DNA of 64,000 nucleotides from Patescibacteria group bacterium (GTDB lineage: Bacteria; Patescibacteriota; Microgenomatia; UBA8517), in assembly GCA_018823885.1 (NCBI GenBank), contig JAHJHG010000001.1:108645-172644 (forward strand), given 5' to 3'. The notes below the pieces were generated by a model. The model saw only the letters and a program-made list of their open reading frames with translations, did no database searches and was not told the origin of the DNA. Positions 4,725 through 58,666 of the stretch are shown piece after piece. Position 1 is the stretch's first letter, and each line of letters starts with the position of its first letter. Made by a program: the position numbers and the translations under genes.

Positions 4725-5375
4725 CTATATATTAGTCAACATGTCGGGCGACAATTCCCCATAATCATAAATCACCTTTTTCGCTTTTTGAAGCAATTTG
4801 GCGTGCTTACTGTCTCTTGCAATCGCCACAACCTTCATCCCTGCATTTTGGGCCGCCTTTATACCCGCCACTGTATCTTCAATTACCAAACAATTTTCTG
4901 GGTCAATTCCTAATTTTTGTGCTGTTAAAAGAAATATTTCCGAATCCGGTTTTTTAAGCTTAACCTCTTCACCAGTTGTGATTGTTTCAAATATTCCCTC
5001 CAAATTGAAAGCATCAAAAACTTTCTCAACCGTTGGCCAAGTATTCGATGTTGCAAGAGCTACAAAAACTCCTGAATCTTTGAGATCTTTTACAAAATCT
5101 TTTACACCATTTTTAAAAGTAACTTTCGATAGCATTTTCAGATATGCCTCTTGGGTTTCTTTGGAAAGCTCTTCTGTGCTTTTTTTTGTTTTTATTTTAT
5201 GCTTAGGAATTAATCTTTGCCAATTTTCTTCCACACCTATTCCCTGTGTATGTGGAAATTCTGAATTAGTTTCTACTCCGAGCTTAGATAAGACTTCTTT
5301 AAAGGCAATTCCATATTCGTCTTCGTTATCCAATACTGTTCCGTCTAAATCAAATATCACCGCCAACAACTTCAT
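4725..5375 (-). CDS. HAD-superfamily hydrolase (beta-phosphoglucomutase-like subfamily IA)
   Basis: Motif I VIFDLDGTVLDNE at the N-terminus. Overall HAD-IA architecture. Confidence 0.75.
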   Translation of the reverse strand: MKLLAVIFDLDGTVLDNEDEYGIAFKEVLSKLGVETNSEFPHTQGIGVEENWQRLIPKHKIKTKKSTEELSKETQEAYLKMLSKVTFKNGVKDFVKDLKDSGVFVALATSNTWPTVEKVFDAFNLEGIFETITTGEEVKLKKPDSEIFLLTAQKLGIDPENCLVIEDTVAGIKAAQNAGMKVVAIARDSKHAKLLQKAKKVIYDYGELSPDMLTNI

Positions 5376-45771: not shown

Positions 45772-46677
45772 CTAAAGAGTGGACAAAAACTTAATAATTT
45801 CTCTTTCTACATTAAGTCCGGTGTCTTTTCTAACCGCTTCCCATCGAGGGGCAGAGTTCACTTCCAAAACAAAAAGTTCACCTGTTTTGTCAACCCTCAG
45901 CACGTCAACTCCTCCGATATCAATTTGCAAAGCCGATGCCGCTTTTATGGCCAGTTTTGCCTCATCTTCGGGAACTGGATTAAGTTGCTCACGTTTCCCC
46001 TCAGGAAATTCGCCATCTATTTTATCGATAAATCGCCTTCTCCAGCGGGTTGGGCGAGTAATTCCAGCTAACACCTTTCCCCCAACCACAAATATCCGAC
46101 TTCTTTGGGAAGATTCCGTAAATTCTTGAGCAATAAAATTCATTTTTTTCTTTTTTTGAAATTCCTGTAATTTCTCGTACAATTCATCTAATTCATTTTC
46201 ATTTCTCGGTGACCAAACCGCATGACCTTGCTTGCCAGTCGTTCCTTTTATTACGAAAGGGTATCCAAATATTTTTGGTGCCTTTTCTTTAATGTTGGCC
46301 AACTTACCAAAATAGGTTTTCGGTACTGGTATACCAGCTTCAATAAAGAGTTTCACTTCTACCGATTTGGGAATGGGGATGCGAATTAAATCTTCTCTTT
46401 CAAATACTCTGTCAACAACTCTCACTCCATGTTGTTTGCAGTGATTAACTAAAAGAGACACTTCTTCAAATCTCTTGCCAACAAGTCTTATATAAACAAC
46501 ACTAAAAGAAGCAATATCTTCACCCTTCACTTTTAAGATTGCTCTTCCCCCATCCGTTAAATATTCAAGATCAGAAAATGAAGCTGTTAGAAGTGGAACA
46601 TTAAGCTCTTTCGCTTCCTTAACAAATGGCTCTATGTGGCGAGTACCCCCGCCAACTATGACTAATATTTTGCTCAT
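45772..46677 (-). CDS. RimK-family ATP-grasp ligase (alpha-L-glutamate ligase-like)
   Basis: 301 aa, the same length class as RimK. ATP-grasp motifs (...FVIKGTTGKQGHAV..., ...GVDVLRVDKTGELFVLEVNSAP...). Confidence 0.7.
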   Translation of the reverse strand: MSKILVIVGGGTRHIEPFVKEAKELNVPLLTASFSDLEYLTDGGRAILKVKGEDIASFSVVYIRLVGKRFEEVSLLVNHCKQHGVRVVDRVFEREDLIRIPIPKSVEVKLFIEAGIPVPKTYFGKLANIKEKAPKIFGYPFVIKGTTGKQGHAVWSPRNENELDELYEKLQEFQKKKKMNFIAQEFTESSQRSRIFVVGGKVLAGITRPTRWRRRFIDKIDGEFPEGKREQLNPVPEDEAKLAIKAASALQIDIGGVDVLRVDKTGELFVLEVNSAPRWEAVRKDTGLNVEREIIKFLSTL

Positions 46678-47972
46678 TCTTCTTCCTTTACGGGATTCAC
46701 CAGAAACCCAGCCAGATCTCGCCTACCGACAATAAGTGGCCTCTTAAGCTTGCTTCTATCTGCTACACCAGCTGAGGTTTTAATTTTTTTACCCTTTAAC
46801 CAAAAAGTGACATTAATAATTGGTCTTCTCTGTTGACCAATAGAACTCCAAACTGTTTTTTGCCAAAGAATGTTGCTCTCTTCAAGCAATCCCATATCCT
46901 GAGCCAATGTTTTGTCTATCGAGCTTCGCCATGCACCAGTATCAATCTTTGACGGAACAGTCAGTCTTTTGCCATCTTTGCCTTTTATTTTTACTTCCTC
47001 AAAAATGTTAAGTGTTCTTATCCCTTCCTCAGCTCTTACTCTATCCGCAAAGGGTCCGGCAAAAAGAGATTTGGCGATAAGAACACCATGGTCGGCATCT
47101 TTTACTTTTAGATCTTCTACTCTTTCCAATCTCTTCCGCAAACCTGCTTGATTAGCAATTTGGATTTGCAAACCGGGTAGAAAATTAATCTCCAAAATCA
47201 TTGGTCCTTTTTCCGGATGAAGGACAATATCGACCCCCAAGTACCCCAACTCCGCTGTCTCTTGGCACATAACGGCCATCTTTAATATCTTTGTCCAATT
47301 GGGTATTTTTATTCCATGAAGCTTGCGTTTTGTCCCAGGTTTATAGGGAATATAATCCCCTTTCCACAAAGCTTTTGTTGTGATCCCTGTGGTGATGTCG
47401 ATACCAACAGCGATTGCTCCTTGATGCAAATTTGCTCTTCCACCCGATTCCTTAGTGGGAAGTCTTAACATGGCCATAACTGGAACTTTATTAAAAACAA
47501 TAATACGAACATCAGGAGTCCCTCTAAAAGCATACTTCTTAAAAGATTTATGCCGACCTACGTATTCTTCAAAAAATGCCATATCCGGCACATTTTGCAT
47601 ACTATACGCTCCTTCTAAAATATCAAATATATGAAGTTTTAAATCCTCAATGGTGACTTTCGTTCTACTTGTTGTGATCCAACCATCTCCATCTTTAGAT
47701 TTTTTCTTGACAACTATTATTCCCTCTCCACCTAAACCTTTGTTAGGCTTTAATGCAAACGAAGGCGGTAGACTATCCCAATCAAAATCGATAAGGTCTC
47801 GGGGATCTTTAAATCTGGCATAAGTATCGGGGACAGGAATATCTACCTTTCTTAACATCCTTTTTGTCCGAAGTTTTGAGTTGGCAATCTTTTTACCATG
47901 CACCGGGTTGTATGGGTACGAAAATAGTTGACTTCTGGCGTTAAGCCCTAAAATTGATGAAGTTTTAACCAT
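46674..47972 (-). CDS. ATP-grasp enzyme (alpha-L-glutamate ligase-related subfamily) fused to a C-terminal retropepsin-like (DTGA, RimB/Zn_protease-like) domain
   Basis: N-terminal KPNKGLGGEGIIVV and SGGRANLHQGA motifs. C-terminal ...KIDTGAWRSSID... and ...IVGRRDLAGFLVNP... are typical of the clan-AA aspartic-protease-like domain that accompanies RimK systems. Confidence 0.6.
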   Translation of the reverse strand: MVKTSSILGLNARSQLFSYPYNPVHGKKIANSKLRTKRMLRKVDIPVPDTYARFKDPRDLIDFDWDSLPPSFALKPNKGLGGEGIIVVKKKSKDGDGWITTSRTKVTIEDLKLHIFDILEGAYSMQNVPDMAFFEEYVGRHKSFKKYAFRGTPDVRIIVFNKVPVMAMLRLPTKESGGRANLHQGAIAVGIDITTGITTKALWKGDYIPYKPGTKRKLHGIKIPNWTKILKMAVMCQETAELGYLGVDIVLHPEKGPMILEINFLPGLQIQIANQAGLRKRLERVEDLKVKDADHGVLIAKSLFAGPFADRVRAEEGIRTLNIFEEVKIKGKDGKRLTVPSKIDTGAWRSSIDKTLAQDMGLLEESNILWQKTVWSSIGQQRRPIINVTFWLKGKKIKTSAGVADRSKLKRPLIVGRRDLAGFLVNPVKEEE

Positions 47973-47978
47973 AGCTTG

Positions 47979-48875
47979 TTAGTCACTGATAAGTCTCCTG
48001 AAACGCCAAAGTTCTATAAATCTTAGGCCAACATACTTACCTACCAGGTAATCTATAGCGATAACTATTAATAACAATATTTCCGGATTAAGTAAGGCGA
48101 ATTCTTGCATTGGTTTTAGAGTTAAAAGAACATAGGAGGCGAGAGATAATATTAACGTTTCTGTAGCTAAATTAATGGCTGTCTTTGCGCTTTTACCTGC
48201 CTGGACTCTACTAAAGTCTTCTGCCAAAAGAACCAAAACAAGAACCGGGAAAATGGAGACATTAGTTAAATCAGGGTGCTGAATAATTGGGGTTGTAAAA
48301 AGCACGCCCAATACCCCGATGGCAACAAACCAAAGTAATAGTGCCATTTTAGGAAGATATTGGAGCTTAATCTTAAGTTTTCTCAAAGCCATTCTCGCTG
48401 CAGTGGAGATTGCCACAATCACTAAGAACAGAACTATTCCTACAATCGGCCCCGTAGCCACAAACACAATTGACAAAGCAGCTGGAAGAAAAATTCCAAA
48501 ACCTCGAATTCCAAGTAAATGCCTCGCCGATGCTATGGCTGCAGCCACCATGGGAAGCAATAATAATAAAACAATCGTATTCGGCGGCACTCCAGCCCCT
48601 ACGGCTCCCCTTATGGCATATTTTATTGGATTTGTTGGCCAAACAGGACCAAGCTCTTGCTCCTCTAAAAGCTTCTCAAGAGGACCAATGGTTTCTTCGG
48701 TAGGTTGGGTCAAATCGGGCCTAGGAGACGGACTAGGTTCAGCCTCAAGCCCTGCTGAAGGACTTGCTGTACCGATGGGAGAAAGGCCTTGAGCAAATAT
48801 ATTGGTCACCACGGCAAAGCTTAAAGCTGCCGCGGCCATAAAACTGATAAGAATACTTGCCTTGCGCATTGTCAT
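47979..48875 (-). CDS. polytopic membrane protein, possibly the 7TM partner of ATP-grasp/transglutaminase-type systems
   Basis: 298 aa. N-terminal signal plus Pro-rich spacer, then about 6–7 hydrophobic helices judged by eye. No soluble domain. Confidence 0.45.
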   Translation of the reverse strand: MTMRKASILISFMAAAALSFAVVTNIFAQGLSPIGTASPSAGLEAEPSPSPRPDLTQPTEETIGPLEKLLEEQELGPVWPTNPIKYAIRGAVGAGVPPNTIVLLLLLPMVAAAIASARHLLGIRGFGIFLPAALSIVFVATGPIVGIVLFLVIVAISTAARMALRKLKIKLQYLPKMALLLWFVAIGVLGVLFTTPIIQHPDLTNVSIFPVLVLVLLAEDFSRVQAGKSAKTAINLATETLILSLASYVLLTLKPMQEFALLNPEILLLIVIAIDYLVGKYVGLRFIELWRFRRLISD

Positions 48876-49015
48876 ATTATACCAGTGTAGAAGGGTTTTT
48901 CCCCTATTTGCAAGGGGGGAAAGAGCCTTGCCGTCACCAGGTTGTTTTCCTTAAAAATTGACAGCTCTAAATATATTGATTACGATATTCAATAACTCCC
49001 TAATTTATCATTTAG

Positions 49016-50320
49016 ATGTCCAAAAAGCATCCTTATAAAGAAATTGTTCTTCCTAATAAACTTCGAGTTCTTCTCTATCCCATGGATTCCGTTATGTCTG
49101 TTTATGCTGTTGTATATGTTCGAGTCGGAGCTATTTATGAGAAACAAAAGGAAAGAGGGATCTCGCATTTTACTGAGCACATGCCCTTCTTGGGCACAAA
49201 AGCGTTGCCCACCCCCCTTTCTCTTTCTCAAGCAGCCGACGAGATCGGAGCAAAATACAATGGAATAACAGGAAGATTTAAAACCGAATACTTGATTAAA
49301 TTACCCTATACAAATATAGGTAAGGGGGTAGATTTTCTTTATAATTTTGTATTTGAACCCCTAAATATAGGCAAAGATATTGAAAAAGAAAAAAACGTTA
49401 TTCTCTCTGAATATAATGATTTTTGGCATAATCCTGATAAAAAATTTAATCATGAATTTTGGAGAAAAAGATTTAAACAAAAAGAGCATCCTTACAGCTA
49501 TCGTGCCCTCGGAATACCCAGAACAATTAAGGCTTTTGAAAAAAATGACATTCTTCACTGGAGAGAACAGTACTATAACCCTGCTAATATGATTCTCTCA
49601 ATTGCTGGAAATATAAACGAGAAACAGTTGATTGAAAAACTCAAAACCACTTTTGGCAAAGAAAAAGCAGGAACAAAGAGAAAAGAACCAAAGTTTGGTT
49701 CAAATGATTATTCTAACTTTTCTGTCTTTCTACAAAATGAGCCTAGGCCGCAAATTAGATTTTTCGTAACATTTCCCGCTTTCGGCTACAAACAAGTATC
49801 TCGACAAAAAGAATTGCAATTAGAATTATTAAAAGACATTCTTGGAGGAAGTCCCTCTTCCCGCTTATATCATCGACTAAGAAGAAAAGAAAGATTTGTA
49901 TATAGTGCTGGATGTAATATGAATATCTATCCTTGGATGGGTGCTTTTTATGTTTGGGGTTCCGTGCCAGCAGAAAAGCTCCTTCCTACTATGAAGTCTA
50001 CTAAGCAAGAAATAGACAAAGTATTAAAAACTGGTGTTACTGAAAAAGAGATAAATCTGTCTAGAAAATACATGGCGGCAGCAAGATTAATGCACTTCGA
50101 TAGCCCCGAATCTGTCGCTTACTATTTCGCTAATCAGGTTTTCGATGAAGACAAAATATGGTTTCCTGAAAGGTATATTAAAGAAGCAGAAAAGGTCACC
50201 AAGGAGGAATTGAATAATTTAGCAAAAAAGATTTTTGACTATTCAAAAGTAAATATCTCACTCCTCGGAAATGTTCCAGATAAAACTTTGAAAGCGGTTG
50301 AGGAAATTTTCAAAGTGTAA
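49016..50320 (+). CDS. M16-family (pitrilysin/insulinase-like) zinc peptidase
   Basis: Inverted zinc motif HFTEH (HxxEH) near the N-terminus, 434 aa. Promoter-like TTGACA-17-TACGAT upstream. Confidence 0.75.
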   Translation: MSKKHPYKEIVLPNKLRVLLYPMDSVMSVYAVVYVRVGAIYEKQKERGISHFTEHMPFLGTKALPTPLSLSQAADEIGAKYNGITGRFKTEYLIKLPYTNIGKGVDFLYNFVFEPLNIGKDIEKEKNVILSEYNDFWHNPDKKFNHEFWRKRFKQKEHPYSYRALGIPRTIKAFEKNDILHWREQYYNPANMILSIAGNINEKQLIEKLKTTFGKEKAGTKRKEPKFGSNDYSNFSVFLQNEPRPQIRFFVTFPAFGYKQVSRQKELQLELLKDILGGSPSSRLYHRLRRKERFVYSAGCNMNIYPWMGAFYVWGSVPAEKLLPTMKSTKQEIDKVLKTGVTEKEINLSRKYMAAARLMHFDSPESVAYYFANQVFDEDKIWFPERYIKEAEKVTKEELNNLAKKIFDYSKVNISLLGNVPDKTLKAVEEIFKV

Positions 50321-50378
50321 TTTTATGGAGCCACTTCTTTCCAATTTAGTCTTTTGAAGGTAAAGTCTCTTGGGAAGG
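50321..50378 (+). repeat. copy A of a ~55-nt direct repeat (TTTTATGGAGCCACTTCTTTCCAATTTAGTCTTTTGAAGGTAAAGTCTCTTGGGAAGG)
   Basis: Aligned by eye with the copies at 53163-53220 and 58609-58666, about 80-85% identity, same orientation. Starts right after the M16 peptidase stop codon. Confidence 0.7.
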
Positions 50379-50565
50379 TTAGCTTCTATGCTATAGATAT
50401 TTTCTCCAACCAGATTTACTTAAAATCTCTGGTATTGAACCTTTTCGGTTTTTTGGCCAATTATGAAGGGGTTGTTGAGCGGGATAACCTTTCTCTTCAG
50501 GGTTAGTAAAAACGGTTAGCGCTTCTTTAAAGGTCGAAAATTACCCCAACTGGTATACTTAGCCC

Positions 50566-51525
50566 ATGATAGGCAAAAACTACTTGGCGACAAAAAAGGA
50601 TTTGGAGGCGATAAACGAAGCTTTGCGCTTTGTGTGGCATCCAAAAATGAAGTTTGTCTTCCAAGAAAAATCAAAAATTGCTAATACGGCTGTAATCTCC
50701 TACGACAGCAAGTTTATATATATATGGACACAAAAAGAATTAAAGGGAATTGACAAAATGCAAAGTGGCCACCCCAAGTATTTGTTTTACAAAATACCTC
50801 ATGCCCTAGAACTCAAAGAGAGGTGGCAATATACATGGCATGCAGACTTGTGGAAAAACATGGAAAAATTCCTTCCTGATCAGATAAAAAGAGAGAATTT
50901 GTTTGATATACCAAGGATTGGTGGAGGATTACTCACACCCTTTGTTGAACTTCAGAAGAAGAGAGGGTTCAAATATAATCCATATGTTACTGGCGAATCG
51001 TATCTCGCCACCATCATACATGAGTTCGGACACAACTACTGGAACCAACACAAACTCTGGTGGTACTCAAACAAAGAAAAAAACATTGAGTATCTAACAG
51101 CTGCAAAAAACCTGTATCAAAAAGGGGGGGGAAATCCTAACATACCTTTGCATATACCAACAAAAAGCGAGGTCGGTGAACTATTCGCGTTTTGCACAGA
51201 ATACTATGCAAGCTCCATCTTTTGGCCAACCCATAGGCAAGCCCTTGACATTTTTGGTAAATATCGATTAAAGGAATTAATAAGGGAGGAAAAAGGGAAA
51301 AATCTAGATAAGCAAGATTCTGTCCTTGAGCCGTCAAAGAACTTACATGACTTTTCCCTTGTTTTCGGCAAAATCATATTCGAGTGCCACCCTAAAAAGT
51401 GGCCTAGTTTTCTAACAAGTCCTCCTTACTTAGGAAGTCATTATGGCCTTGGCGGTCCTGGAGGCGGTGATGGACGACTGGGATTACACGGCTGGGGAGG
51501 TTCCCCAGAAGGCAGGCATGACTGA
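50566..51525 (+). CDS. hypothetical HExxH zinc-metallopeptidase-like protein with a Gly-rich C-terminal tail
   Basis: IIHEFGHNYW motif. Extended -10 (TGGTATACT) 7 nt before the ATG suggests a leaderless start. The last 85 bp overlap a convergent small ORF. Confidence 0.5.
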   Translation: MIGKNYLATKKDLEAINEALRFVWHPKMKFVFQEKSKIANTAVISYDSKFIYIWTQKELKGIDKMQSGHPKYLFYKIPHALELKERWQYTWHADLWKNMEKFLPDQIKRENLFDIPRIGGGLLTPFVELQKKRGFKYNPYVTGESYLATIIHEFGHNYWNQHKLWWYSNKEKNIEYLTAAKNLYQKGGGNPNIPLHIPTKSEVGELFAFCTEYYASSIFWPTHRQALDIFGKYRLKELIREEKGKNLDKQDSVLEPSKNLHDFSLVFGKIIFECHPKKWPSFLTSPPYLGSHYGLGGPGGGDGRLGLHGWGGSPEGRHD

Positions 51526-51635
51526 GCAGCAACTTTATTAGTATCTAAAGTTACCAGTTCAATTGTAGGCTCCTTGGATATCTCGCCGTCAACTTCTCCC
51601 ACCTGCTTAGCAAACGATAGCATTTCTTTTTGCAT
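51441..51635 (-). CDS. small Pro/Cys-rich peptide (64 aa), a candidate RiPP precursor downstream of the radical-SAM/SPASM gene
   Basis: Strong SD (GAAAGGGGG) 8 nt upstream of an ATG. The track start is a GTG three codons earlier. The C-terminus CLPSGEPPQPCNPSRPSPPPGPPRP is core-like. It is antisense to the Gly-rich tail of the HExxH ORF, so the coding strand is ambiguous. Confidence 0.35.
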   Translation of the reverse strand: MQKEMLSFAKQVGEVDGEISKEPTIELVTLDTNKVAAQSCLPSGEPPQPCNPSRPSPPPGPPRP

Positions 51636-51674
51636 TGTTTTCACCCCCTTTCTTCAAATTTGTCTTATTACTTA

Positions 51675-53108
51675 TTAATATTCTATTGGATGTGCGACTT
51701 CAACTCCTTGAGTTGCCACTACTTTTTTTATAAACGGCTCTAAGGTTTCATCATAATAAGGCTTTCCCTCTCCGTTTAATCTCCAGGCCCCCTTTGCCCA
51801 CTCACCTCTATATGGATTGTATGTACATCTGGGATAAGGAGCAGAAAAATATTCACCCTGATTCTGATTAGCTCCTTCCGCAAGGGGTCGACAATCAAAA
51901 CAAGCATATCTATACTCACAGTCCTGACAAACCAATACATTATCTTTTGTATTTCTCCAAACAGTTTCGAGTTTTTGCCCTAAAACTATTTCTCTAAGAG
52001 CCACTTCCAAAGCATTACCGACTATTAAGTCTCTCGAAAAAATACATGGCAATACATTTCCATTATCAGTAATAGTTATTTTGCCTTGTAGACATGAATG
52101 TCCAGAAGTATTTCTAGAGAAAATATCTTTTGAGATTGTAAAATTTGGTGACATCATAAGGCTATATTTCACGATAGATTTCTTAGTTGGCATTATCGAT
52201 GGATTGTCTCCTCTTCCTTTTGGTCTCAAAACGTCTGGTTGCTTATGGGAAAACCCCATTTCTTCTACAAGTTCCTGAGTTTGCTTGATTGTCTGTTCAT
52301 TTGGACTCATTAATACCGTCTCAACTCTTACGGGCACACCAACTTCTTTTAGAAATTTTAAAGCTTCTATTGTTTTTCTGAAACTACCTGGGGTTTTTGT
52401 AATTGAATCATGTAGTTTTTCATCATTTGAATAAAGCGAAGTGGCAACATTTATACCAAGTGCTTTAATTCTTTGAATTTTTTTTGGCGTAAGCATTGTT
52501 GCATTCGTAAAAATTTCAATATATTCATATCCAACATTTTTAGAATATTCTGCAAGATCAAAAACTGTTTCTCCATTTTCTCCCTTATATAGAAGTGGCT
52601 CGCCACCAATAAACTGACATCTTCTACATCCCAAATAGTAAGATTCATCAATAAACTCTTTCCATTTCTCAAAGGAAACCCCCTTATTGTTTTCGAAACT
52701 CTGTTTGGAATGCAAGTTTCTTTCTTTTGAGATACCCATTGCTTTTTGGTACGTGGGTGGCATACATTCCGCATAGCAGTGAATACAACTTTCGTTGCAA
52801 TCATTTGAAACAATCTCGAACCACACAAATTGAAGAGAGGGGCTTCGCATAAGTTCTTGCAACATACTTCTTCGATTGCTTTTTTCCTGGGTTACTAAAT
52901 CCATGGTTTCAAGCTTTTTCCAAAACCCTAAATTTTTAGTTACACCAATCAAAATGTCGCAAGCCGAGTGGTTTATTGAATAAATTCTGGAGGAATTTAC
53001 ATCATAAATTGCTCCTCTTAGTACTCCAGGGACAAAGAAAACACCATCTTTAAATATATGCTCACCTGAGGATAAATGTTCTTTAATATCCAGGCCACGT
53101 TCTTTCAT
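51675..53108 (-). CDS. radical SAM enzyme with a C-terminal SPASM domain (peptide-maturase type)
   Basis: CNESCIHC (CxxxCxxC) cluster. The C-terminal Cys-rich region (...C.DCEYRYACFDC...C) is SPASM-like. The track start at 53186 is a TTG inside repeat B. The start was reassigned to the ATG at 53108, which is preceded by a perfect TTGACA-17-TATATT promoter at 53119-53147 on the minus strand. Confidence 0.8.
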   Translation of the reverse strand: MKERGLDIKEHLSSGEHIFKDGVFFVPGVLRGAIYDVNSSRIYSINHSACDILIGVTKNLGFWKKLETMDLVTQEKSNRRSMLQELMRSPSLQFVWFEIVSNDCNESCIHCYAECMPPTYQKAMGISKERNLHSKQSFENNKGVSFEKWKEFIDESYYLGCRRCQFIGGEPLLYKGENGETVFDLAEYSKNVGYEYIEIFTNATMLTPKKIQRIKALGINVATSLYSNDEKLHDSITKTPGSFRKTIEALKFLKEVGVPVRVETVLMSPNEQTIKQTQELVEEMGFSHKQPDVLRPKGRGDNPSIMPTKKSIVKYSLMMSPNFTISKDIFSRNTSGHSCLQGKITITDNGNVLPCIFSRDLIVGNALEVALREIVLGQKLETVWRNTKDNVLVCQDCEYRYACFDCRPLAEGANQNQGEYFSAPYPRCTYNPYRGEWAKGAWRLNGEGKPYYDETLEPFIKKVVATQGVEVAHPIEY

Positions 53109-53162
53109 GTTTGCACAGAATATAGGATAAAAACATAAAATTGTCAAATAATGAACACGCGC

Positions 53163-53220
53163 TTCTACGGAGCCACTTCTTTCCAATTTAGCCTCTTGAA
53201 GGTAAGATCTCTGGAGGAAG
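53163..53220 (+). repeat. copy B of the ~55-nt direct repeat
   Basis: CTACGGAGCCACTTCTTTCCAATTTAGCCTCTTGAAGGTAAGATCTCTGGAGGAAG. Lies between the rSAM promoter and the NUDIX gene stop. Confidence 0.7.
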
Positions 53221-53295
53221 AAAGGAAGGGGATATTGGATTTTTCCAGAAAGTGGTTATATACGAAGGTGTTCTTGATCCTTGTAAAAAATGCTT

Positions 53296-53757
53296 TTACT
53301 CTATCTCTTTAATGTATTCCCCCTCTTTAGGAAATCCGTTATTGAAATCTACCAATAACTTCGGAGACAATGTTTTTGGTAATAGATTGTCTGATAAATT
53401 ATCAATATCAAGCCAAGTCAACCAAACTGATCCGTCGGGGTGTTCCGGATCTTTTAAACCATCTAGTTTGTCAGTTTTGTTTATACTTCCCAAAATAAAT
53501 AATTCCACACTGTGTTCATTCTCATCAGGTCTAATAAAATCACGGATGTAGAGCATTTTCTGAAAATCAAACTTAACCTTATCTCCACATTCTTCCCTTA
53601 CTTCTCTTGCACAAGCATCCTCTACAGTTTCTCCATATTCCAAATGGCCTCCGATATAATGATAAAAATCACCCTTTTCTCTGTATTGAACAAGAACTTT
53701 CCTGTTATGGATTATTACCAACCTTACCCGAACGTTAATTATATTTTCAGTTTTCAT
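53296..53757 (-). CDS. NUDIX hydrolase
   Basis: Nudix box GGHLEYGETVEDACAREVREECG. Confidence 0.8.
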   Translation of the reverse strand: MKTENIINVRVRLVIIHNRKVLVQYREKGDFYHYIGGHLEYGETVEDACAREVREECGDKVKFDFQKMLYIRDFIRPDENEHSVELFILGSINKTDKLDGLKDPEHPDGSVWLTWLDIDNLSDNLLPKTLSPKLLVDFNNGFPKEGEYIKEIE

Positions 53758-53888
53758 TTATTTATAGTTATTATAAATCTTTTTGTGTTTGTTTTCATTC
53801 CTTTGAGTGCATCGTATTTTTTATAAACCTTTCTAATATCTTAAAGTTTTTTTATAATGTCTCTTTTGGAATGTTATAAATGTAAAAA

Positions 53889-55118
53889 TTAGTTAAATTC
53901 TAATCCCAACTCTCTCGCTTGTTTCAAATTAAAGTTTAATCTCTTAACCCATCTTTTAGAGGGACTAGAAAAAACACGTGTCGATTTAAAAATATTTGCC
54001 AACTTATATGAGTAGTTCTTATTCAAGAATTTCCCCTTTGCTGTATCAAAGCCGCATATTGCAATATTTTCTCTTAATTTTGAATTTGTCATAACCAACT
54101 CAATTTTACTAGCTAAATCTTCATAGTTTCCATGAGTATACAAAAAGCCATTTTTCTCATGTTTTATTATTTCCGAAACTCCGCCGCCATCGGCAGCAAT
54201 AACAGGTTTTTTGAATAACATCCCTTCTAAAATCGTTCTTCCAAAAGCTTCATTTTTTGAGCAAACAAGAACAGCGTCACATTGTTGAAACAACGGATAG
54301 GGATTTTCAATAAAATCTCTAACCTGAAAGCGCCATTTTTTCCCACTCTGATCAATCAAATTATGAATTTTTTTCATGAAAACGTCGTCAGTACACCTAC
54401 CAAGGATTAGCAATTCAACATCCAGTTTTCTGACTAGTAATAACGATGTTGCTCTAATAATATCCAGCTGTCCTTTTTTTTTAGAAATTGTTCCCGCTAT
54501 TAATAACTTAAAAGCGTTGGGGTAATTAAATGTGACCGGTAATTTTTTTATAAAAAGCTTTCTGTTAATTCTAATTGAGTTATAAACTACAGTAGATTTT
54601 GATCTTAAAATGTACTTACCAAATTCCTTCATTACAGCTTTAGAGTTAAATATAACCCTAGATGAAAAGTCATTAATAAATTTAGCAGTGAAAGCAAAGC
54701 CAAACTCGAATATAAAACCATGATCCTTCTCGCCTAATTCTCTAACATACCATATGTGAGGAACCCTTAACATATTGGCTACCAGTGCTCCTATGCAAAT
54801 CGTACTGGTGTTTGTTACCACCAAATCGGGGTGAAATTTCTCAATTTTGTTTTTCAGTCTCTTCGCACTATCTAAATGAGTATAAAAAAAGGTATTTACT
54901 GGTCTCCTGCTTTCTCCTCTGCGCACAGTCCACCACTTATATGGATGAATAATCCAATTTATTCTTGCTCTTGTAAGTTTGACGCCAAGTGCCCCATCAG
55001 ACGGAAGAACTACGCACAATCGCATCTTGGGAATTTTTTTTAGTGTTTCAAGCAAATAAAGCAAAGAACGCTCTGCACCTCCTAAATTGCTACTATGCGA
55101 AATAAAACAAATTTTCAT
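53889..55118 (-). CDS. glycosyltransferase family 4 (GT-B, GT1-type)
   Basis: MKICFISHSSNLGGAERSLL N-terminus. C-terminal E..G..ILE.M....PVIA motif region. Confidence 0.8.
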   Translation of the reverse strand: MKICFISHSSNLGGAERSLLYLLETLKKIPKMRLCVVLPSDGALGVKLTRARINWIIHPYKWWTVRRGESRRPVNTFFYTHLDSAKRLKNKIEKFHPDLVVTNTSTICIGALVANMLRVPHIWYVRELGEKDHGFIFEFGFAFTAKFINDFSSRVIFNSKAVMKEFGKYILRSKSTVVYNSIRINRKLFIKKLPVTFNYPNAFKLLIAGTISKKKGQLDIIRATSLLLVRKLDVELLILGRCTDDVFMKKIHNLIDQSGKKWRFQVRDFIENPYPLFQQCDAVLVCSKNEAFGRTILEGMLFKKPVIAADGGGVSEIIKHEKNGFLYTHGNYEDLASKIELVMTNSKLRENIAICGFDTAKGKFLNKNYSYKLANIFKSTRVFSSPSKRWVKRLNFNLKQARELGLEFN

Positions 55119-55123
55119 GTAAT

Positions 55124-56890
55124 TTAGAAAGTTTTTAGTTTTAAAAGTTTATTCATAGGTGTGTTTTTTTCGAAAAAATTAAACCATAAAACGATATCAA
55201 GGATGGTACTAATCCTATTTATTTTTAAATTCATTTTTGCATCGTTGATAATTTTTCTCTTCCTTAAAAAAGGTGGAAAATCTAAGCGATTTAATAAATC
55301 AAACAGATATCTCGCGTCATTTTTAGAGATTTCAGAATAGTCGCTTATTAACTCTCTTGGGTTTTCATTAAATTGCATAATTCTTTGGTCATAAGCTCTC
55401 AATTTCTCCAAATTTTCATCGCTTGTTGACCTAATTTGCTTAACTTCAGGAAATGCTGTGTCGATTATTCGTCTATAAATAAACTTAAATTTGTAATCAT
55501 GTTGAATGCTTAGGCCAAATGTAATTAGTTTGTCGTTGAAAAATGGCTGTATTACTGTTTTCAAACAACTTCCAATAATATTACTAGGTGTTATGCTGAT
55601 TCCATTTCTAATTCGGTTTTTCATTAGAAAAACTACCATTCGATTTTCAGTCGTAGGTATATTATTCAATTCATCAACGACCCAGTCTTCTTTGTATTTA
55701 ATACTCTTCCAAACCTCAGGGTTTAAATAATCTTCGAGCCAAGAATATTCAAATCCAAACTGCTTTCTAAAAAGTTTAGCTAGATAGCGTGAATTCGCTT
55801 TCATTTGAATATGTATTGGGCGCACTCGAGTAGAGCGCATTATTATGTCTCCTCCAATACCATCAATATAAGTATCATATTTTTTGATCGTTTCCAGCAT
55901 CGGCATCGTCCATAAATGTTCTTGCACTAAACAGTCGCTCAAGTAAGCTTTCATAACAAAAAAACGTTCGTAAATATCGGCAGGTCTATCAATATAAATA
56001 CTATTTATCCCCAAAGCATTAGATAGTTCGCATACAATGTCTTTCTCTGAACCGCAAGGATGGAGTGTGGTTATCGTGTCAAAATCAGATTGGTTAGAAA
56101 ACTTTTTGAGACCAGCCACAATACACCGGGAATCATACCCTCCAGAGAGAGCAGTTATCGATTTCGATCCTTCAATGGTTTTTCCCAAATCACTAAAAAC
56201 CTTTCTAAATATTTCTACACCCTCTGAGGTTTTTTGTTCGTAGCTGGAGTTATAATCAATATCAATTTGCGAAAAATCCCAATACTTTTCCTGTCTAACA
56301 CTAATAGCATCTCTGTAGGATATCTTAACTAAAGTTCCATTTGATATTAAGCGAATATCTTTGTAAAAAGTTTCTTCACCTAACGTAAATCTAAAAGTTA
56401 AATATTCCCCCCACGCTTTCCAGTTTATGGGTGGTTTCCTATCTAATAAAGGTATTAGCAACTTTACTTCAGATCCGAAGGCAAAACCATCAGCACATCT
56501 GCATACGAAAAGGGGTCGAGAACCATATTTGTCAGTTATTATAAAAATTAGTTGTTTTTTCTTATCTATTAATAAAAGATTAAAGGATCCATTAATCTTT
56601 TTGACAAAATTAATAGAATGTTTTTTGTTATACAAGCTTATTATGTGACTTGCAGTTTTTTCTGCTTTAGGCTTATCAAAAAGATTTCCTTGAAAAACAA
56701 CAATCAAATTTTCGTCTTCAGCTATACAATCATCAATTGGGGCCAAACCACAGACTGATATTTTATAATTATTATCTTTAAAATATCTAAGATTTTTGTA
56801 ATAACTTTCAACACCTGCTGGAAGTATTCCTGTAAAACTCAAGTTGTTTCGTGATAAGTTTTTGCCTATCCTTCCAAAGATTTTAAGCAT
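55124..56890 (-). CDS. asparagine synthetase-like amidotransferase (AsnB family) lacking the N-terminal Cys nucleophile
   Basis: PP-loop SGGYDSR and the AsnB synthetase domain are present. The N-terminus is MLKIFG rather than MCG. Confidence 0.75.
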   Translation of the reverse strand: MLKIFGRIGKNLSRNNLSFTGILPAGVESYYKNLRYFKDNNYKISVCGLAPIDDCIAEDENLIVVFQGNLFDKPKAEKTASHIISLYNKKHSINFVKKINGSFNLLLIDKKKQLIFIITDKYGSRPLFVCRCADGFAFGSEVKLLIPLLDRKPPINWKAWGEYLTFRFTLGEETFYKDIRLISNGTLVKISYRDAISVRQEKYWDFSQIDIDYNSSYEQKTSEGVEIFRKVFSDLGKTIEGSKSITALSGGYDSRCIVAGLKKFSNQSDFDTITTLHPCGSEKDIVCELSNALGINSIYIDRPADIYERFFVMKAYLSDCLVQEHLWTMPMLETIKKYDTYIDGIGGDIIMRSTRVRPIHIQMKANSRYLAKLFRKQFGFEYSWLEDYLNPEVWKSIKYKEDWVVDELNNIPTTENRMVVFLMKNRIRNGISITPSNIIGSCLKTVIQPFFNDKLITFGLSIQHDYKFKFIYRRIIDTAFPEVKQIRSTSDENLEKLRAYDQRIMQFNENPRELISDYSEISKNDARYLFDLLNRLDFPPFLRKRKIINDAKMNLKINRISTILDIVLWFNFFEKNTPMNKLLKLKTF

Positions 56891-56922
56891 AATGTATAAT
56901 ATTTTACCAGAGTTTATAATTT

Positions 56923-57825
56923 ATGACATCTTATTCATTTATAATCCCATCATTCAACTCGGCCAAGGATCTCATGACGTGTGTTAGGAGTCTAAACAGT
57001 TTAAAATACAATAAGCGTAAATATGAAATTATTATTGTAGATGATGGTTCAACAGACCAATCGACTTCGCAAATAAAAAGACTCAACATAGCCAACCTAA
57101 AGATTTATAAGAACCCAAAACAAGGTGCTGCTGCTGCCCGGAATTATGGCATAGAAAAAGCAAAGAAAAACATCCTTATATTTCTAGACCAGGATGTATC
57201 AGTTAAAGAAAATTTGCTTAACATATATGATAGTGCTTTAAAGATTACTGGTGCAGATGCGGTGCAAGGTAATATTTGGAAGCAACTAATAAATACTGAG
57301 CTAACGAAGACACATGCAACGTGGAGAAAGATAGTATTTATAAACAAAGTTAACGATCATGATGGATTTATAAAAACTATTGTTACCAGGAATGTAGCCA
57401 TAAAGAAGGAGGTTTTAAATAAAATACTACGAAAAGATGGTTATATTTTTGACGAGAAATTTAAAGGTACTGGTGGCGAAGACCGCGAACTAGGATATAG
57501 AATTAATAAGCTTGGATTTAATATTTATCTTGAGCCCCAAGCCATCGTAAAACACAAAGACCCTGACAAGTTATTGGGTATCCTTATCCAAAAATATAAA
57601 CACGCACGGGGCGATGTAAAATTGGGGATTGGAGAAAAGTTTTACGACATATCTAACTTTAAGAGGGTTGTCATAAATCCGTTGGGAAGTGGAGTTCCTC
57701 TATATTTTTCATTTCTTATCTGGTGCTTTCATATAGCTGGTTGCGAAATCGAAAGAGCTAAGCAAAAACTTATCATAATTTCAAACGGTATTTTTTCCAG
57801 AAATCATAGCCCAAGGGGTTTTTAA
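56923..57825 (+). CDS. glycosyltransferase family 2
   Basis: FIIPSFNSAKDL...EIIIVDDGSTD and a DxD-containing core. Confidence 0.75.
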   Translation: MTSYSFIIPSFNSAKDLMTCVRSLNSLKYNKRKYEIIIVDDGSTDQSTSQIKRLNIANLKIYKNPKQGAAAARNYGIEKAKKNILIFLDQDVSVKENLLNIYDSALKITGADAVQGNIWKQLINTELTKTHATWRKIVFINKVNDHDGFIKTIVTRNVAIKKEVLNKILRKDGYIFDEKFKGTGGEDRELGYRINKLGFNIYLEPQAIVKHKDPDKLLGILIQKYKHARGDVKLGIGEKFYDISNFKRVVINPLGSGVPLYFSFLIWCFHIAGCEIERAKQKLIIISNGIFSRNHSPRGF

Positions 57826-58419
57826 CAAAATTAGCAAGTCAAGAAACAGGGATTTTTTCCCCGCATAATATGCGTCCAATTCTATTCTTTTGTCGAAATC
57901 CACACTACTTCTTCCCGATACTTGCCAATATCCTGTAATACCTGGTTTGACGGATAAAACATTTTTCAGCAATTTCTTTTTCTCGGGAAACTTTCTAAAC
58001 TGTTGCCCAAGCTCTTCAGGATAATATGGTCTAGGTCCGACAATGCTCATTTCACCCTTCAAAACATTCAACAGCTGTGGAATTTCGTCGATTGAGTGTT
58101 TCCTTATAAACCTACCGACTGGAGTCACTCTTGGATCGTTATAGAGCTTGTAACCAGATTTTGTATATTCTTTATGGAGATTCTTGAAACGAGGGTCTGT
58201 TTTTAAAAGTTCATGAGCATTTACTATCATTGACCTAAATTTATATGGAAAAAAAGCTCTATTGCTCTTCCCTACTCGCTTTGGTGTATTGGCAAAAATT
58301 GGGCCATGGGTTGTTAGTTTAATTAATAATGCGGTGATTAGTATAACAGGGGAAAAAAATATCAGTAGAAAAATAGCCCCAACAATATCTATTGATCTTT
58401 TTAATATCTTATAAATCAT
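57781..58419 (-). CDS. small phosphoglycosyl transferase (bacterial sugar transferase family, PglC/WbaP C-terminal-domain type)
   Basis: Single N-terminal TM helix followed by ...YKFRSM..., DE.PQL.NVL.G.MS.VGPRP motifs. Confidence 0.8.
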   Translation of the reverse strand: MIYKILKRSIDIVGAIFLLIFFSPVILITALLIKLTTHGPIFANTPKRVGKSNRAFFPYKFRSMIVNAHELLKTDPRFKNLHKEYTKSGYKLYNDPRVTPVGRFIRKHSIDEIPQLLNVLKGEMSIVGPRPYYPEELGQQFRKFPEKKKLLKNVLSVKPGITGYWQVSGRSSVDFDKRIELDAYYAGKKSLFLDLLILLKTPWAMISGKNTV

Positions 58420-58461
58420 ATAATAAATTCTACATTAAGAAAGCAGGTCAAAGCTAGTATA

Positions 58462-58608
58462 ATGCAAATAATGAAAGCGGCAATATATAATCCGTATTTA
58501 GACACCTTGGGTGGTGGCGAGCGCTATACGGTGGCAGTTGCTACAACCTTGAAAAAGAACGGTTATTTAGTCGATACTGAATGGAAAGATTCTTCAATAA
58601 AAAGTCTA
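58462..58608 (+). pseudogene. 5' fragment (about 48 codons) of a GT-B glycosyltransferase gene, truncated at repeat copy C
   Basis: The N-terminus MQIMKAAIYNPYLDTLGGGERYTVAVATTLKKNGYLVD looks like a glycosyltransferase start. Recognisable sequence stops where the repeat begins, and the remaining ORF is repeat-derived or antisense sequence. Confidence 0.5.
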
Positions 58609-58666
58609 TTTTATGGAGCCACTTCTTTCCACCTTAACCTTTTGAAGGTGAGGTCTCTGGGGAAAG
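58609..58666 (+). repeat. copy C of the ~55-nt direct repeat
   Basis: TTTTATGGAGCCACTTCTTTCCACCTTAACCTTTTGAAGGTGAGGTCTCTGGGGAAAG. Coincides with the glycosyltransferase truncation point and with the stop of the 723-aa minus-strand gene. Confidence 0.7.

Follow-up and report, generated by a model that had tools for sequence, protein, structure and literature searches.

Among the closest known systems are CteB (SCIFF) and the other ranthipeptide and sactipeptide synthases (PapB-freyrasin, AlbA, SkfB, StsB), which combine an RRE with radical SAM and SPASM domains and work beside a Cys-rich precursor carrying a repeated short motif. CteB is reportedly a thioether synthase with an auxiliary-cluster site free. 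SuiB, the streptide maturase, and the cyclopropyl synthase TigE are likewise RRE-rSAM-SPASM maturases, and the TigE substrate, like that of the family described below, has a tandem short-repeat core. anSME, another radical SAM/SPASM enzyme, modifies Cys within a C-x-P sequence; it recognises the motif C/S-x-P/A-x-R in its sulfatase substrate, is believed to have eight cluster-ligating Cys (the ligation state has reportedly been described) and, to our knowledge, has no RRE. Removal of RiPP leaders by M1, M61 and M16 metalloproteases is documented, as is leader or core processing by the AplP-like M1 and MfuP-like M61 enzymes of lanthipeptide systems (PMC10885120).

The window analysed here, a 64,000-nt stretch of DNA from a Patescibacteria group bacterium, contains a locus at 50321-53220 that is best read as a radical SAM/SPASM-type RiPP cassette whose precursor belongs to an undescribed Cys-x-Pro family. 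We lean slightly towards a three-gene unit consisting of an rSAM/SPASM maturase, a precursor peptide and a convergent HExxH peptidase. The original prediction had proposed a four-gene RiPP cassette that also included an M16 peptidase, and all four ORFs were found at the positions it gave. Synteny, motifs and selection bear out the cassette for the rSAM enzyme, the small peptide and the HExxH protein, while the M16 gene drops out. That prediction did not include the Cys-x-Pro register in which the core Cys stand, the occurrence of the family well outside the CPR or the antisense overlap between the HExxH tail and the peptide gene.

The radical SAM/SPASM enzyme

The minus-strand gene at 51675..53108 encodes a radical SAM/SPASM peptide maturase of 477 aa, identical to P0001 and assigned from Pfam, homologues, an AF2 model and Foldseek. 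A CxxxCxxC cluster and a C-terminal SPASM Cys array had been proposed for it, and Pfam Radical_SAM (E=1.6e-18) and SPASM (E=1.2e-6) both exceed the gathering score. The cluster motif (C104, C108 and C111; 52776..52799, minus strand) is invariant in both family sets compared (20 and 71 members). In the family alignment, the seven Cys of the SPASM array (C339, C355, C394, C397, C403, C406 and C428; 51825..52094, minus strand) do not vary across 71 members drawn from many phyla, among which no conserved eighth SPASM Cys was found. A homologue search recovered 801 rSAM homologues, of which those named by source are all CPR (Woese-, Ames-, Roizman-, Davies- and Levybacteria), and a wider genome scan carries the family beyond the CPR.

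Foldseek searches with the AF2 model (pLDDT 78.5) returned SuiB, SkfB, TigE and CteB as top matches (E 1e-12 to 1e-10), and in this comparison the predicted structure is similar along its entire length to RRE-bearing peptide maturases. SuiB is the best Foldseek match (1e-12) and TigE the best sequence-profile match (5e-11), although identity to either is just 14-15% and their substrates, modified at Lys-Trp (SuiB) and Ile/Val (TigE), have no Cys requirement, unlike those of the window family. anSMEcpe is also a significant structural match (E 2.6e-9); when grouping with anSME-like non-peptide enzymes was checked, the RRE-bearing maturases matched better. No curated maturase family reached its cut-off on the enzyme, either in NCBIfam or in Pfam beyond the generic domains, which is a point against the cassette reading. 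The best scores below cut-off were AhbD (95 bits vs 500), SPASM_w_grasp (82 vs 175) and StsB (62 vs 625), with AlbA at 47 vs 850 and, in a relative, PapB at 50 vs 340. A literature search found no description of this enzyme-peptide family.

The best-scoring SPASM-domain similarity, to Grasp-with-spasm (TIGR04193; 82 bits), covers residues 356-465 and hence the C-terminal domain only. ATP-grasp genes likewise occur 3-6 kb from the unit, within a RimK / ATPgrasp_ST-retropepsin / 7TM_transglut operon; in the 86 related loci searched, none of its three genes had a homologue within ~4-6 kb of the rSAM homologue.

The N-terminal extension, residues ~1-90 (52839..53108, minus strand), appears RRE-like (PqqD-like), as the original prediction had suggested, and would bind the leader. 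Its AF2 model contains three or four strands at 17-45 followed by helices at 47-68, its profile matches the lasso RRE TbiB1 best in the PDB (E=0.033; CteB N-terminus, E=0.5), and the PqqD Pfam is found under threshold in the enzymes of two relatives (E=0.0037 and 0.036). That this evidence stays under family thresholds counts against the cassette reading.

The probable Cys-x-Pro precursor peptide

The next gene on the minus strand (51441..51635) encodes a precursor peptide of 64 aa from its ATG, MQKEMLSFAKQVGEVDGEISKEPTIELVTLDTNKVAAQSCLPSGEPPQPCNPSRPSPPPGPPRP, recognised by its conserved position, purifying selection and motifs and ending in ...CLPSGEPPQPCNPSRPSPPPGPPRP. The strong Shine-Dalgarno sequence noted earlier for this ORF is real: GGGGGTG (51642..51648, minus strand), read from the sequence, stands 6 nt ahead of the ATG, and AAGGAGGTG occupies this place in homologous loci. 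The program-made ORF list begins the ORF at a GTG lying inside the Shine-Dalgarno sequence. A leader recognition motif, EPTIELVT (residues 22-29; 51549..51572, minus strand), is conserved across the peptides as (E/K/Q/D)P(T/E)IxLV(T/S), a form common to those of CPR, Chloroflexota and archaea, with L27 and V28 invariant in the peptide alignment (A6). The core (51480..51518, minus strand) comprises two Cys-x-Pro units, C40-L-P and C50-N-P, the second being CNPSR, and is followed by a Pro-rich tail; C40, P42, C50 and P52 are invariant columns of the same alignment. Across 45 peptides, 254 of 277 Cys (92%) stand in the CxP register, compared with ~49 expected from composition.

The 64-aa ORF is the only one in the window to combine the leader motif with CxP units. 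Conservation of the small ORF beside rSAM homologues had been named as a check on the cassette; under a strict test, an adjoining same-strand small CxP ORF with the shared leader motif was found in 54 of 80 genomes with a homologous rSAM gene, against a background of 1 match in 318 kb of distal flanks. The peptide ORF is under purifying selection, since pN (0.17-0.28) is far below pS (0.54-0.86). One Clostridiales member carries a Nif11 leader and GG ahead of a CxP core (Nif11, TIGR03798, 1.3e-9, above cut-off), which ties the CxP family to accepted RiPP logic. The enzyme and the small peptide are very probably an enzyme-substrate pair. The pair differs from ranthipeptide and sactipeptide systems in its leader motif (EPxIxLVT) and in a C-x-P repeat without a fixed acceptor, as against CxxxD (PapB) or the SCIFF pattern. 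It differs from anSME in having as its substrate not a sulfatase but a small peptide of its own that carries many units.

The HExxH protein and the limits of the unit

Opposite these genes, 50566..51525 on the plus strand encodes an HExxH zinc metallopeptidase-like protein of 319 aa, a putative leader or tail peptidase with its zinc-binding motif, HEFGH, at 51019..51033 (plus strand). H152, E153, H156 and E205 are invariant in its family, and the predicted fold is that of a gluzincin, a thermolysin/M1-type zinc peptidase, sharing HExxH and a distal Glu with the AplP-like M1 and MfuP-like M61 enzymes. It differs from those in size (~285 aa vs 600-900 aa), in having neither Pfam nor NCBIfam membership, in having homologues only in CPR relatives (protein-collection search) and in being encoded by a gene convergent with the precursor gene and overlapping it in antisense over its last ~28 codons. 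A novel HExxH partner also sets the family apart from ranthipeptide and sactipeptide systems. The protein belongs to the cassette unit, as originally proposed, because homologues adjoin the rSAM gene in 19 species genomes and a zinc-peptidase fold is predicted; that it processes the precursor is probable. In 15 other genomes the same position is filled by another HExxH family, for which no homology to the first could be detected.

In homologous loci the gene order rSAM, small ORF, convergent HExxH is kept across unrelated flanks. In the window, the three genes lie in an island of lower GC content that has been rearranged and is flanked by stubs of genes; direct repeats bound them at 50321..50375 on the left (encoding ..FPRDFTFKRLNWKEVAP* on the minus strand) and 53163..53220 on the right (encoding ..RDLTFKRLNWKEVAP*), each an orphan remnant of the 3′ end of a surface-protein gene. 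The repeats are 88% identical (50321-50370 vs 53163-53212), their 23-mer core had 0 matches in 100 shuffles, and a third copy lies at 58610-58663. Just upstream of the rSAM start is a putative sigma-70-like promoter, TTGACA-17-TATATT (53119..53147, minus strand), whose 11/12 consensus match is the best of the region in a consensus scan; if functional, its proximity would leave a very short 5′ UTR. No transporter gene lies within the three-gene unit, a further point against the cassette reading, and export and a biological function of the product are presumed.

The M16 peptidase gene (49016..50320, plus strand; Pfam Peptidase_M16 and M16_C) is adjacent to the unit but is not assigned to it on the evidence. 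A dedicated leader peptidase completing a four-gene unit, as first proposed, would fit its adjacency, its intact HxxEH motif (HFTEH) and a weak PqqF match (52 bits; cut-off 320), and some RiPP leaders are indeed processed by heteromeric M16 proteases, at times from outside the cluster (PMC10885120). We consider this quite improbable: none of 86 related loci has an M16 homologue within 4-6 kb of its rSAM gene, the window's M16 gene has its own promoter in a consensus scan (48958-48986), it lies outside the repeats that had been said to bound the whole unit, it is missing at the corresponding site in an 83-85% identical relative (L087), and the best family matches of its product are the YfmH/YfmF-type housekeeping M16 pair.

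Proposed mechanism and alternative readings

On the three-gene reading, the promoter at 53147-53119 would drive a bicistronic minus-strand operon for the maturase and then the precursor peptide, with the convergent gene supplying a gluzincin-type HExxH zinc peptidase. The RRE-like domain would bind the leader as a strand, EPTIELVT, and SAM would be cleaved at the radical SAM cluster to a 5′-deoxyadenosyl radical that may abstract hydrogen in or next to each core Cys-x-Pro unit, in a turn probably enforced by Pro. The two SPASM clusters could then serve as thiolate anchor and electron sink while each unit is converted, most likely by closure of a small thioether (S-C) ring within the peptide, with the loss of 2 Da per unit, before the HExxH peptidase removes the leader or trims the Pro-rich tail. 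We put thioether cross-links forward tentatively. They are preferred because seven rather than eight SPASM Cys would leave one auxiliary-cluster site free for the substrate thiolate, as in CteB, and because Cys is the only invariant reactive residue. Against them, no residue stands out as the acceptor; D or N occupies position +3 in only 84 of 250 units, and this position is mostly non-acidic in the window's clade. The general thioether mechanism and the anSME C-beta mechanism are both summarised in PMC10114670.

The same cassette and substrate could instead support Cys-centred chemistry as in anSME, with C-beta (or C-alpha) hydrogen abstraction and no cross-link, giving formylglycine, a D-Cys epimer or another oxidised Cys in the C-x-P turn. 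The sulfatase motif has C-x-P at its core, the final CxP unit in the window peptide reads CNPSR where relatives show CGPTR or CNPTR, which fits CxPxR, the anSMEcpe fold match is significant, and only Cys and Pro are invariant. We nevertheless judge this unlikely, as Arg at +4 occurs in just 8 of 207 units, the anSME family model reaches only 42-50 bits against a 349 cut-off in relatives and is outside the top 25 for the window protein, the RRE and the seven-Cys array depart from anSME, and cross-linking maturases are the better structural matches. A chance small ORF, with the enzyme's true substrate being a small molecule (haem/AhbD-like, cofactor) or the product of a gene at another locus, is extremely improbable: the top NCBIfam partial matches are AhbD and NirJ2, but far under cut-off and spanning only the generic core, and the antisense frame at the ORF's 3′ end is open because Pro codons (CCN) read as Gly (GGN). 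The ORF's position, leader motif and CxP register are conserved across phyla, its frame is under selection, and the enzyme carries an RRE-like domain.

A different question is whether the family is real but the window copy a decaying or non-functional remnant. The copy is atypical and may be decaying: its peptide has two CxP units compared with 8-9 in the closest relatives (74-75% enzyme identity), and the HExxH ORF no longer has the customary stop and continues in antisense into the peptide gene; both also count against the cassette reading. The resulting tail of ~35 aa is unique and modelled with very low confidence, no identical protein was found in the protein-collection search (best match 59%), one metagenome assembly of the same genome carries a nonsense allele (W159stop, G to A at 51042), likewise a point against the cassette, and the unit sits in a rearranged island between stubs. 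Such decay is still rather unlikely, given that the rSAM gene retains every invariant residue and a near-consensus promoter, the peptide its leader motif, Shine-Dalgarno sequence and both invariant CxP columns, and the HExxH protein all its family-invariant residues, with the intact allele identical in three independent assemblies.

Dozens of distant bacteria and archaea share this undescribed enzyme-peptide pair, which has no curated family match, and this makes it a good candidate for a new family of peptide natural products.

Gene layout and limits of the unit

ORF listing and direct reading placed all four genes of the original prediction where it had put them. The plus strand carries an M16 peptidase (49016-50320; HFTEH, with Pfam Peptidase_M16 and M16_C domains) and a 319-aa HExxH protein (50566-51525; HEFGH), and the minus strand carries a 64-aa precursor peptide ORF (51441-51635) and the 477-aa radical SAM (rSAM)/SPASM gene (51675-53108), the last identified by Pfam. 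The HExxH protein and the small ORF had no Pfam match. A strong Shine-Dalgarno sequence (SD), GGGGGTG (51642-51648, minus strand), precedes the peptide gene; the start given by ORF listing is a GTG inside this SD, and the ATG was taken instead. The tail of the HExxH ORF lies antisense to the small ORF over 85 nt; the Gly-rich residues with which it ends (GLGGPGGGDG...) are no more than the Pro-rich core of the peptide read from the opposite strand. The rSAM gene has a near-consensus promoter (TTGACA-17-TATATT, 11/12 match; 53147-53119, minus strand), whose -10 hexamer ends just 10 nt before the ATG, with no SD visible (53106-53147, minus strand). Translation of this first gene of the operon may thus start on a leaderless or near-leaderless mRNA, whereas the peptide gene has a strong SD.

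The M16 gene had been counted as a fourth member of the cassette, an assignment that is not upheld: none of the 86 loci examined has a homologue, the gene has a promoter-like site of its own (48958-48986, a consensus match), and it is missing at this site in L087, a contig from a relative with 83–85% nucleotide identity. Among family models it most resembles the YfmH/YfmF housekeeping pair, and it scores 52 bits against the PqqF model (TIGR02110; cut-off 320). The direct repeats proposed to bound all four genes are genuine (core 23-mer, 0 matches in 100 shuffles), and they bracket exactly three, the HExxH, peptide and rSAM genes, since one ~55-nt copy (50321-50375) follows the M16 stop and leaves that gene outside while another (53163-53220) lies beyond the rSAM promoter. 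Both of these copies are orphan stubs. The third copy (58610-58663, coding on the minus strand) forms the authentic 3′ end of a gene for a 723-aa Cys-rich surface protein, whose sequence finishes with FPRDLTFKRLRWKEVAP and a stop codon. All three copies have the same orientation and encode the last 17 residues of the surface protein (..FKRL(N/R)WKEVAP, then stop), an ending also found in a metagenomic homologue (L088 168-227). An RNA element and an att site were both rejected as explanations of the repeat, which has no Rfam match and no integrase nearby and encodes the true C-terminus of the surface-protein family.

Upstream of the M16 gene lies an apparent three-gene operon (45772-48875, minus strand) of a RimK-type ATP-grasp protein, an ATPgrasp_ST and retropepsin-like fusion, and a 7TM_transglut membrane protein. 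The set is RloB-like and has no connection with the RiPP unit; a graspetide link through its ATP-grasp genes was discarded because these belong to the 7TM_transglut operon and 0/86 loci have a homologue of any of the three within about 4–6 kb of the rSAM gene. In L087, the region upstream of the 7TM operon (equivalent to window position 48915) runs straight into a repeat copy (4937-4990), where the contig ends. This junction and the reduced GC of most genes in the 49016-58419 interval suggest a variable island, 48916-58609, divided into segments by recombination at the short repeat. The cassettes of other genomes have no such flanking repeat. A plus-strand ORF (58462-58860) starts like a GT4 glycosyltransferase N-terminus (MQIMKAAIYNPYLDTLGGGERY...) and loses this resemblance exactly where repeat copy 3 begins, so it is probably a gene cut short at the junction of a rearrangement. 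Elsewhere, in other genomes, the cassette adjoins an IS200/IS605 Y1 transposase or an AbiEi/AbiEii pair (L003 8878-9552; L005 2420-3963), mobile and defence-type neighbours that are consistent with a cassette living in variable regions.

An rSAM/SPASM enzyme with a probable RRE-like N-terminus

Pfam searches supported both domains proposed for the enzyme, with scores above the gathering thresholds for Radical SAM (PF04055; 67.9 bits vs 29.5, E 1.6e-18) and SPASM (PF13186; 29.2 bits vs 21.5, E 1.2e-6). For SPASM, assignment additionally called for a C-terminal seven-Cys array (CX9-15GX4C...CX2CX5CX2-3C...C). C104-x3-C108-x2-C111 and seven further Cys are invariant among 20 homologues of 50–75% identity, and exactly these 3+7 Cys, with no eighth, are retained when the alignment is widened to 71 members of the family across many phyla. 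In the AlphaFold model (mean pLDDT 78.5), predicted N-terminal strands (17-45) and helices (47-68) precede the TIM-barrel core. The top Foldseek matches in the PDB are SuiB, SkfB, TigE and CteB (E 1e-12 to 1e-10 over 410–480 aligned columns), all of them peptide maturases with an N-terminal RiPP precursor recognition element (RRE), a radical SAM core, and a SPASM or twitch domain, followed by anSMEcpe, MoaA, BlsE and viperins. Among solved structures, TigE is the closest by sequence profile, though the match reaches only E 5e-11.

The N-terminal extension, which the original prediction suspected of being RRE-like, was compared with the features expected of such a domain, namely a winged helix of ~90 aa whose sheet has three strands plus a PqqD (PF05402) or RRE-Finder match. 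Its predicted secondary structure fits an RRE-type fold, and full-length Foldseek alignments to SuiB and CteB include the N-terminus. The best PDB match to a profile of the N-terminal ~90 residues is the lasso-peptide RRE TbiB1 (E=0.033), with the CteB N-terminus at E 0.5; for PqqD, the window enzyme has no Pfam match and two distant members score 18.0 and 14.8 bits, below the 23.4 threshold. Given these profile and sub-threshold matches, the domain is likely RRE-like.

Placement in a named family was negative throughout. No NCBIfam cut-off is reached by the window rSAM or by four distant relatives from Clostridia and Krumholzibacteriota. Scores for the ranthipeptide and sactipeptide synthase models (PapB, StsB, AlbA, SkfB, CcpM) are all far below cut-off. 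The enzyme scores 51.6 bits against PqqE (TIGR02109; cut-off 381), and its precursor lacks the PqqA-type Glu/Tyr motif (E-x3-Y). The anaerobic sulfatase-maturating enzyme (anSME) model TIGR03942 is outside the best 25 matches of the window protein and gives 42–50 bits in relatives (cut-off 349). Among PADLOC defence-system models, only generic pVip (viperin) core similarity was seen for the rSAM (50 bits), and the HExxH, peptide and M16 products had no match. Judged by these models, the enzyme is of the rSAM/SPASM kind but falls in no curated maturase family.

Conserved Cys-x-Pro precursors and two families of HExxH partners

Homologues of the enzyme form 801 clusters at E<=1e-5, the named ones coming from Woese-, Ames-, Roizman-, Davies- and Levybacteria. 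The trio of rSAM gene, same-strand small ORF behind AAGGAGGTG, and convergent ~282-aa protein recurs in three independent contexts with wholly different flanks. A scan of one genome per species recovered 80 loci with a homologous enzyme, in bacteria (Microgenomates, WWE3, Dojkabacteria, Saccharibacteria, Chloroflexota, Latescibacterota, Krumholzibacteriota, Clostridia and Deltaproteobacteria) and archaea (Methanosarcinales, Bathyarchaeota and Thermoproteota), with some labels of metagenome-assembled genomes (‘uncultured Gammaproteobacteria’) probably unreliable. Almost everywhere a Cys/Pro-rich ORF adjoins the enzyme gene, directly downstream or, in archaea and Clostridia, upstream. Under a strict definition (a same-strand ORF within 1.5 kb with at least three C-x-P (CxP) motifs that cover at least 70% of its Cys), 54/80 loci contain such an ORF, compared with a single match in 318 kb of more distant flanks. 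The small ORF is thus clearly conserved beside rSAM homologues, as a precursor gene was expected to be.

The peptides have the general organization of RiPP precursors, with a gene conserved beside that of the modifying enzyme, a leader that is likewise conserved, and a core that varies but carries the motif. The leader motif, (E/K/Q/D)P(T/E)IxLV(T/S), appears in the window peptide as EPTIELVT (residues 22-29) and lies 4–16 residues ahead of the first Cys. Across 45 peptides, Pro occupies position +2 of 254 of the 277 Cys (92%), where composition-preserving shuffles predict ~49; x is free and +3 is often D, N or C. Pairwise codon comparison of eight peptide gene pairs gave pN of 0.08–0.28 and pS of 0.18–0.86, indicating that the peptide frame is under purifying selection. 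One Clostridiales member (L083 5241-5585) has a Nif11 leader (TIGR03798, above cut-off) that ends in GG and is immediately followed by an eight-unit CxP core, which ties the family to accepted RiPP logic; this leader is the only match of the family peptides to curated models. A peptide profile search of 5.8 billion proteins returned 12 matches, all unnamed or ‘hypothetical’.

Two variants of the peptide stand out. Those of Microgenomates (window 51441-51500; L003, L040, L089, L090) end in a common module, C(G/N)P(T/S)R-G(D/E)-PRPPGPP(K/R)P, in which a sulfatase-like CxPxR unit comes first and a tail reminiscent of proline-rich antimicrobial peptides last. At archaeal and some other loci (L044 3570-3986, L056 3183-3689, L063 3198-3680, L065 3372-3755, L066 3158-3679), the CxP-repeat gene is upstream of the enzyme and encodes a 125–175-aa product with a C-terminal amphipathic, coiled-coil-like helix (..EIKKKIARK), a feature that may point to a structural or non-secreted product in this branch.

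The HExxH protein of the window has 232 homologues, all unnamed and without a Pfam domain, with named sources in Woese-, Davies- and Roizmanbacteria; no Pfam or NCBIfam model matched this family. In 19/80 species genomes a homologue adjoins the rSAM gene, usually in convergent orientation and abutting the stop of the peptide gene. H152, E153, H156, E205 and Y213 are invariant, and the structural model is that of a predicted gluzincin (clan MA), with HExxH on the active-site helix, a downstream Glu, and a thermolysin-like fold; E205 would be the zinc ligand. In 15 other genomes, the equivalent position beside rSAM and CxP-peptide pairs is taken by a second HExxH family of ~250 aa (L011 5656-6426, L013 2975-3697, L020 5673-6395 and 12 other loci) that has an invariant HExxH-x9-H...E...D pattern and no matching Pfam model. 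Homology between the two was sought and rejected (hhalign probability 0.3%, alignment at the motif only), so we treat them as independent recruitments, which favours a metallopeptidase step as part of the pathway. Proteases of the M1, M61 and M16 families have been documented as RiPP leader or core peptidases (PMC10885120). At ~285 aa, the HExxH protein would rank among the smallest dedicated RiPP metalloproteases, a possible tool for leader removal.

Chemistry and novelty of the cassette

Onto the established architecture, synteny, motifs and selection on the peptide frame, we infer the following steps. The leader strand EPTIELVT would dock onto the RRE-like domain, the 5′-deoxyadenosyl radical would take a hydrogen at every C-x-P unit, the SPASM clusters would finish the two-electron oxidation, and the gluzincin would take off the leader. 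As chemistry we favour thioether ring formation, because no reactive residue other than Cys is invariant, the closest structural matches are peptide cross-linking enzymes, and the SPASM domain has seven rather than eight Cys. In CteB this number leaves an auxiliary-cluster site for the substrate thiolate, whereas in anSMEs the clusters are fully Cys-ligated.

The leading alternative is modification of the Cys itself, in the manner of an anSME. The sulfatase motif (C/S-x-P/A-x-R) centres on C-x-P, and the last unit of the window peptide and its relatives is a conserved C(G/N)P(T/S)R. Elsewhere, however, Arg seldom stands at +4 (8/207 CxP units), a count on which sulfatase-type CxPxR was rejected as the general motif, and the enzyme probably carries an RRE-like domain whereas the anSME class is defined without a leader-binding domain. 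A separate question is whether the window copy still functions in full. Its peptide has two CxP units where the closest relatives (74–75% enzyme identity) have 8–9, its HExxH ORF, for want of the usual stop codon, continues for ~35 more residues, and in one assembly of the same genome (L093) a G-to-A change at window 51042 turns the conserved W159 into a stop. These peculiarities make partial decay a live possibility, but an unlikely one. The rSAM enzyme and its promoter are intact, and two other assemblies of the same genome are identical to the window.

As a kind, the RRE-dependent radical SAM/SPASM RiPP cassette is well known. What appears new is the family of Cys-x-Pro precursors with its leader motif, together with the two families of HExxH partners, none of which matches a curated model. 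Searches of open-access full text found no published description of the CxP peptides or the HExxH partners, an absence that is weak evidence. No curated system of radical SAM/SPASM maturases shares the strict Cys-x-Pro register, and its chemistry could thus be new. More speculatively, and with the balance of probability against it, the CxP peptides and RRE-rSAM-SPASM enzymes might form an undescribed RiPP class across the candidate phyla radiation (CPR), Chloroflexota, Firmicutes, Latescibacterota and several archaeal lineages, with a new C-x-P chemistry (e.g., a Cys-to-Pro thioether micro-ring or serial formylglycines) and a Microgenomates product that has a PRPPGPP(K/R)P tail like those of proline-rich ribosome-targeting antimicrobial peptides and is freed by a novel minimal gluzincin. 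Even if the modification is an ordinary thioether, a widespread subclass reaching into archaea would be added.

The family has a crisp signature, an EPxIxLVT leader ahead of a core with nearly all Cys in C-x-P, and the small, portable gene set is ready for heterologous expression. To our knowledge, the tiny genomes of CPR/Patescibacteria have yielded almost no characterised natural products. That many Microgenomates conserve a mobile three-gene unit for peptide modification suggests a useful function, which may lie in host or competitor interaction, signalling or metal handling.
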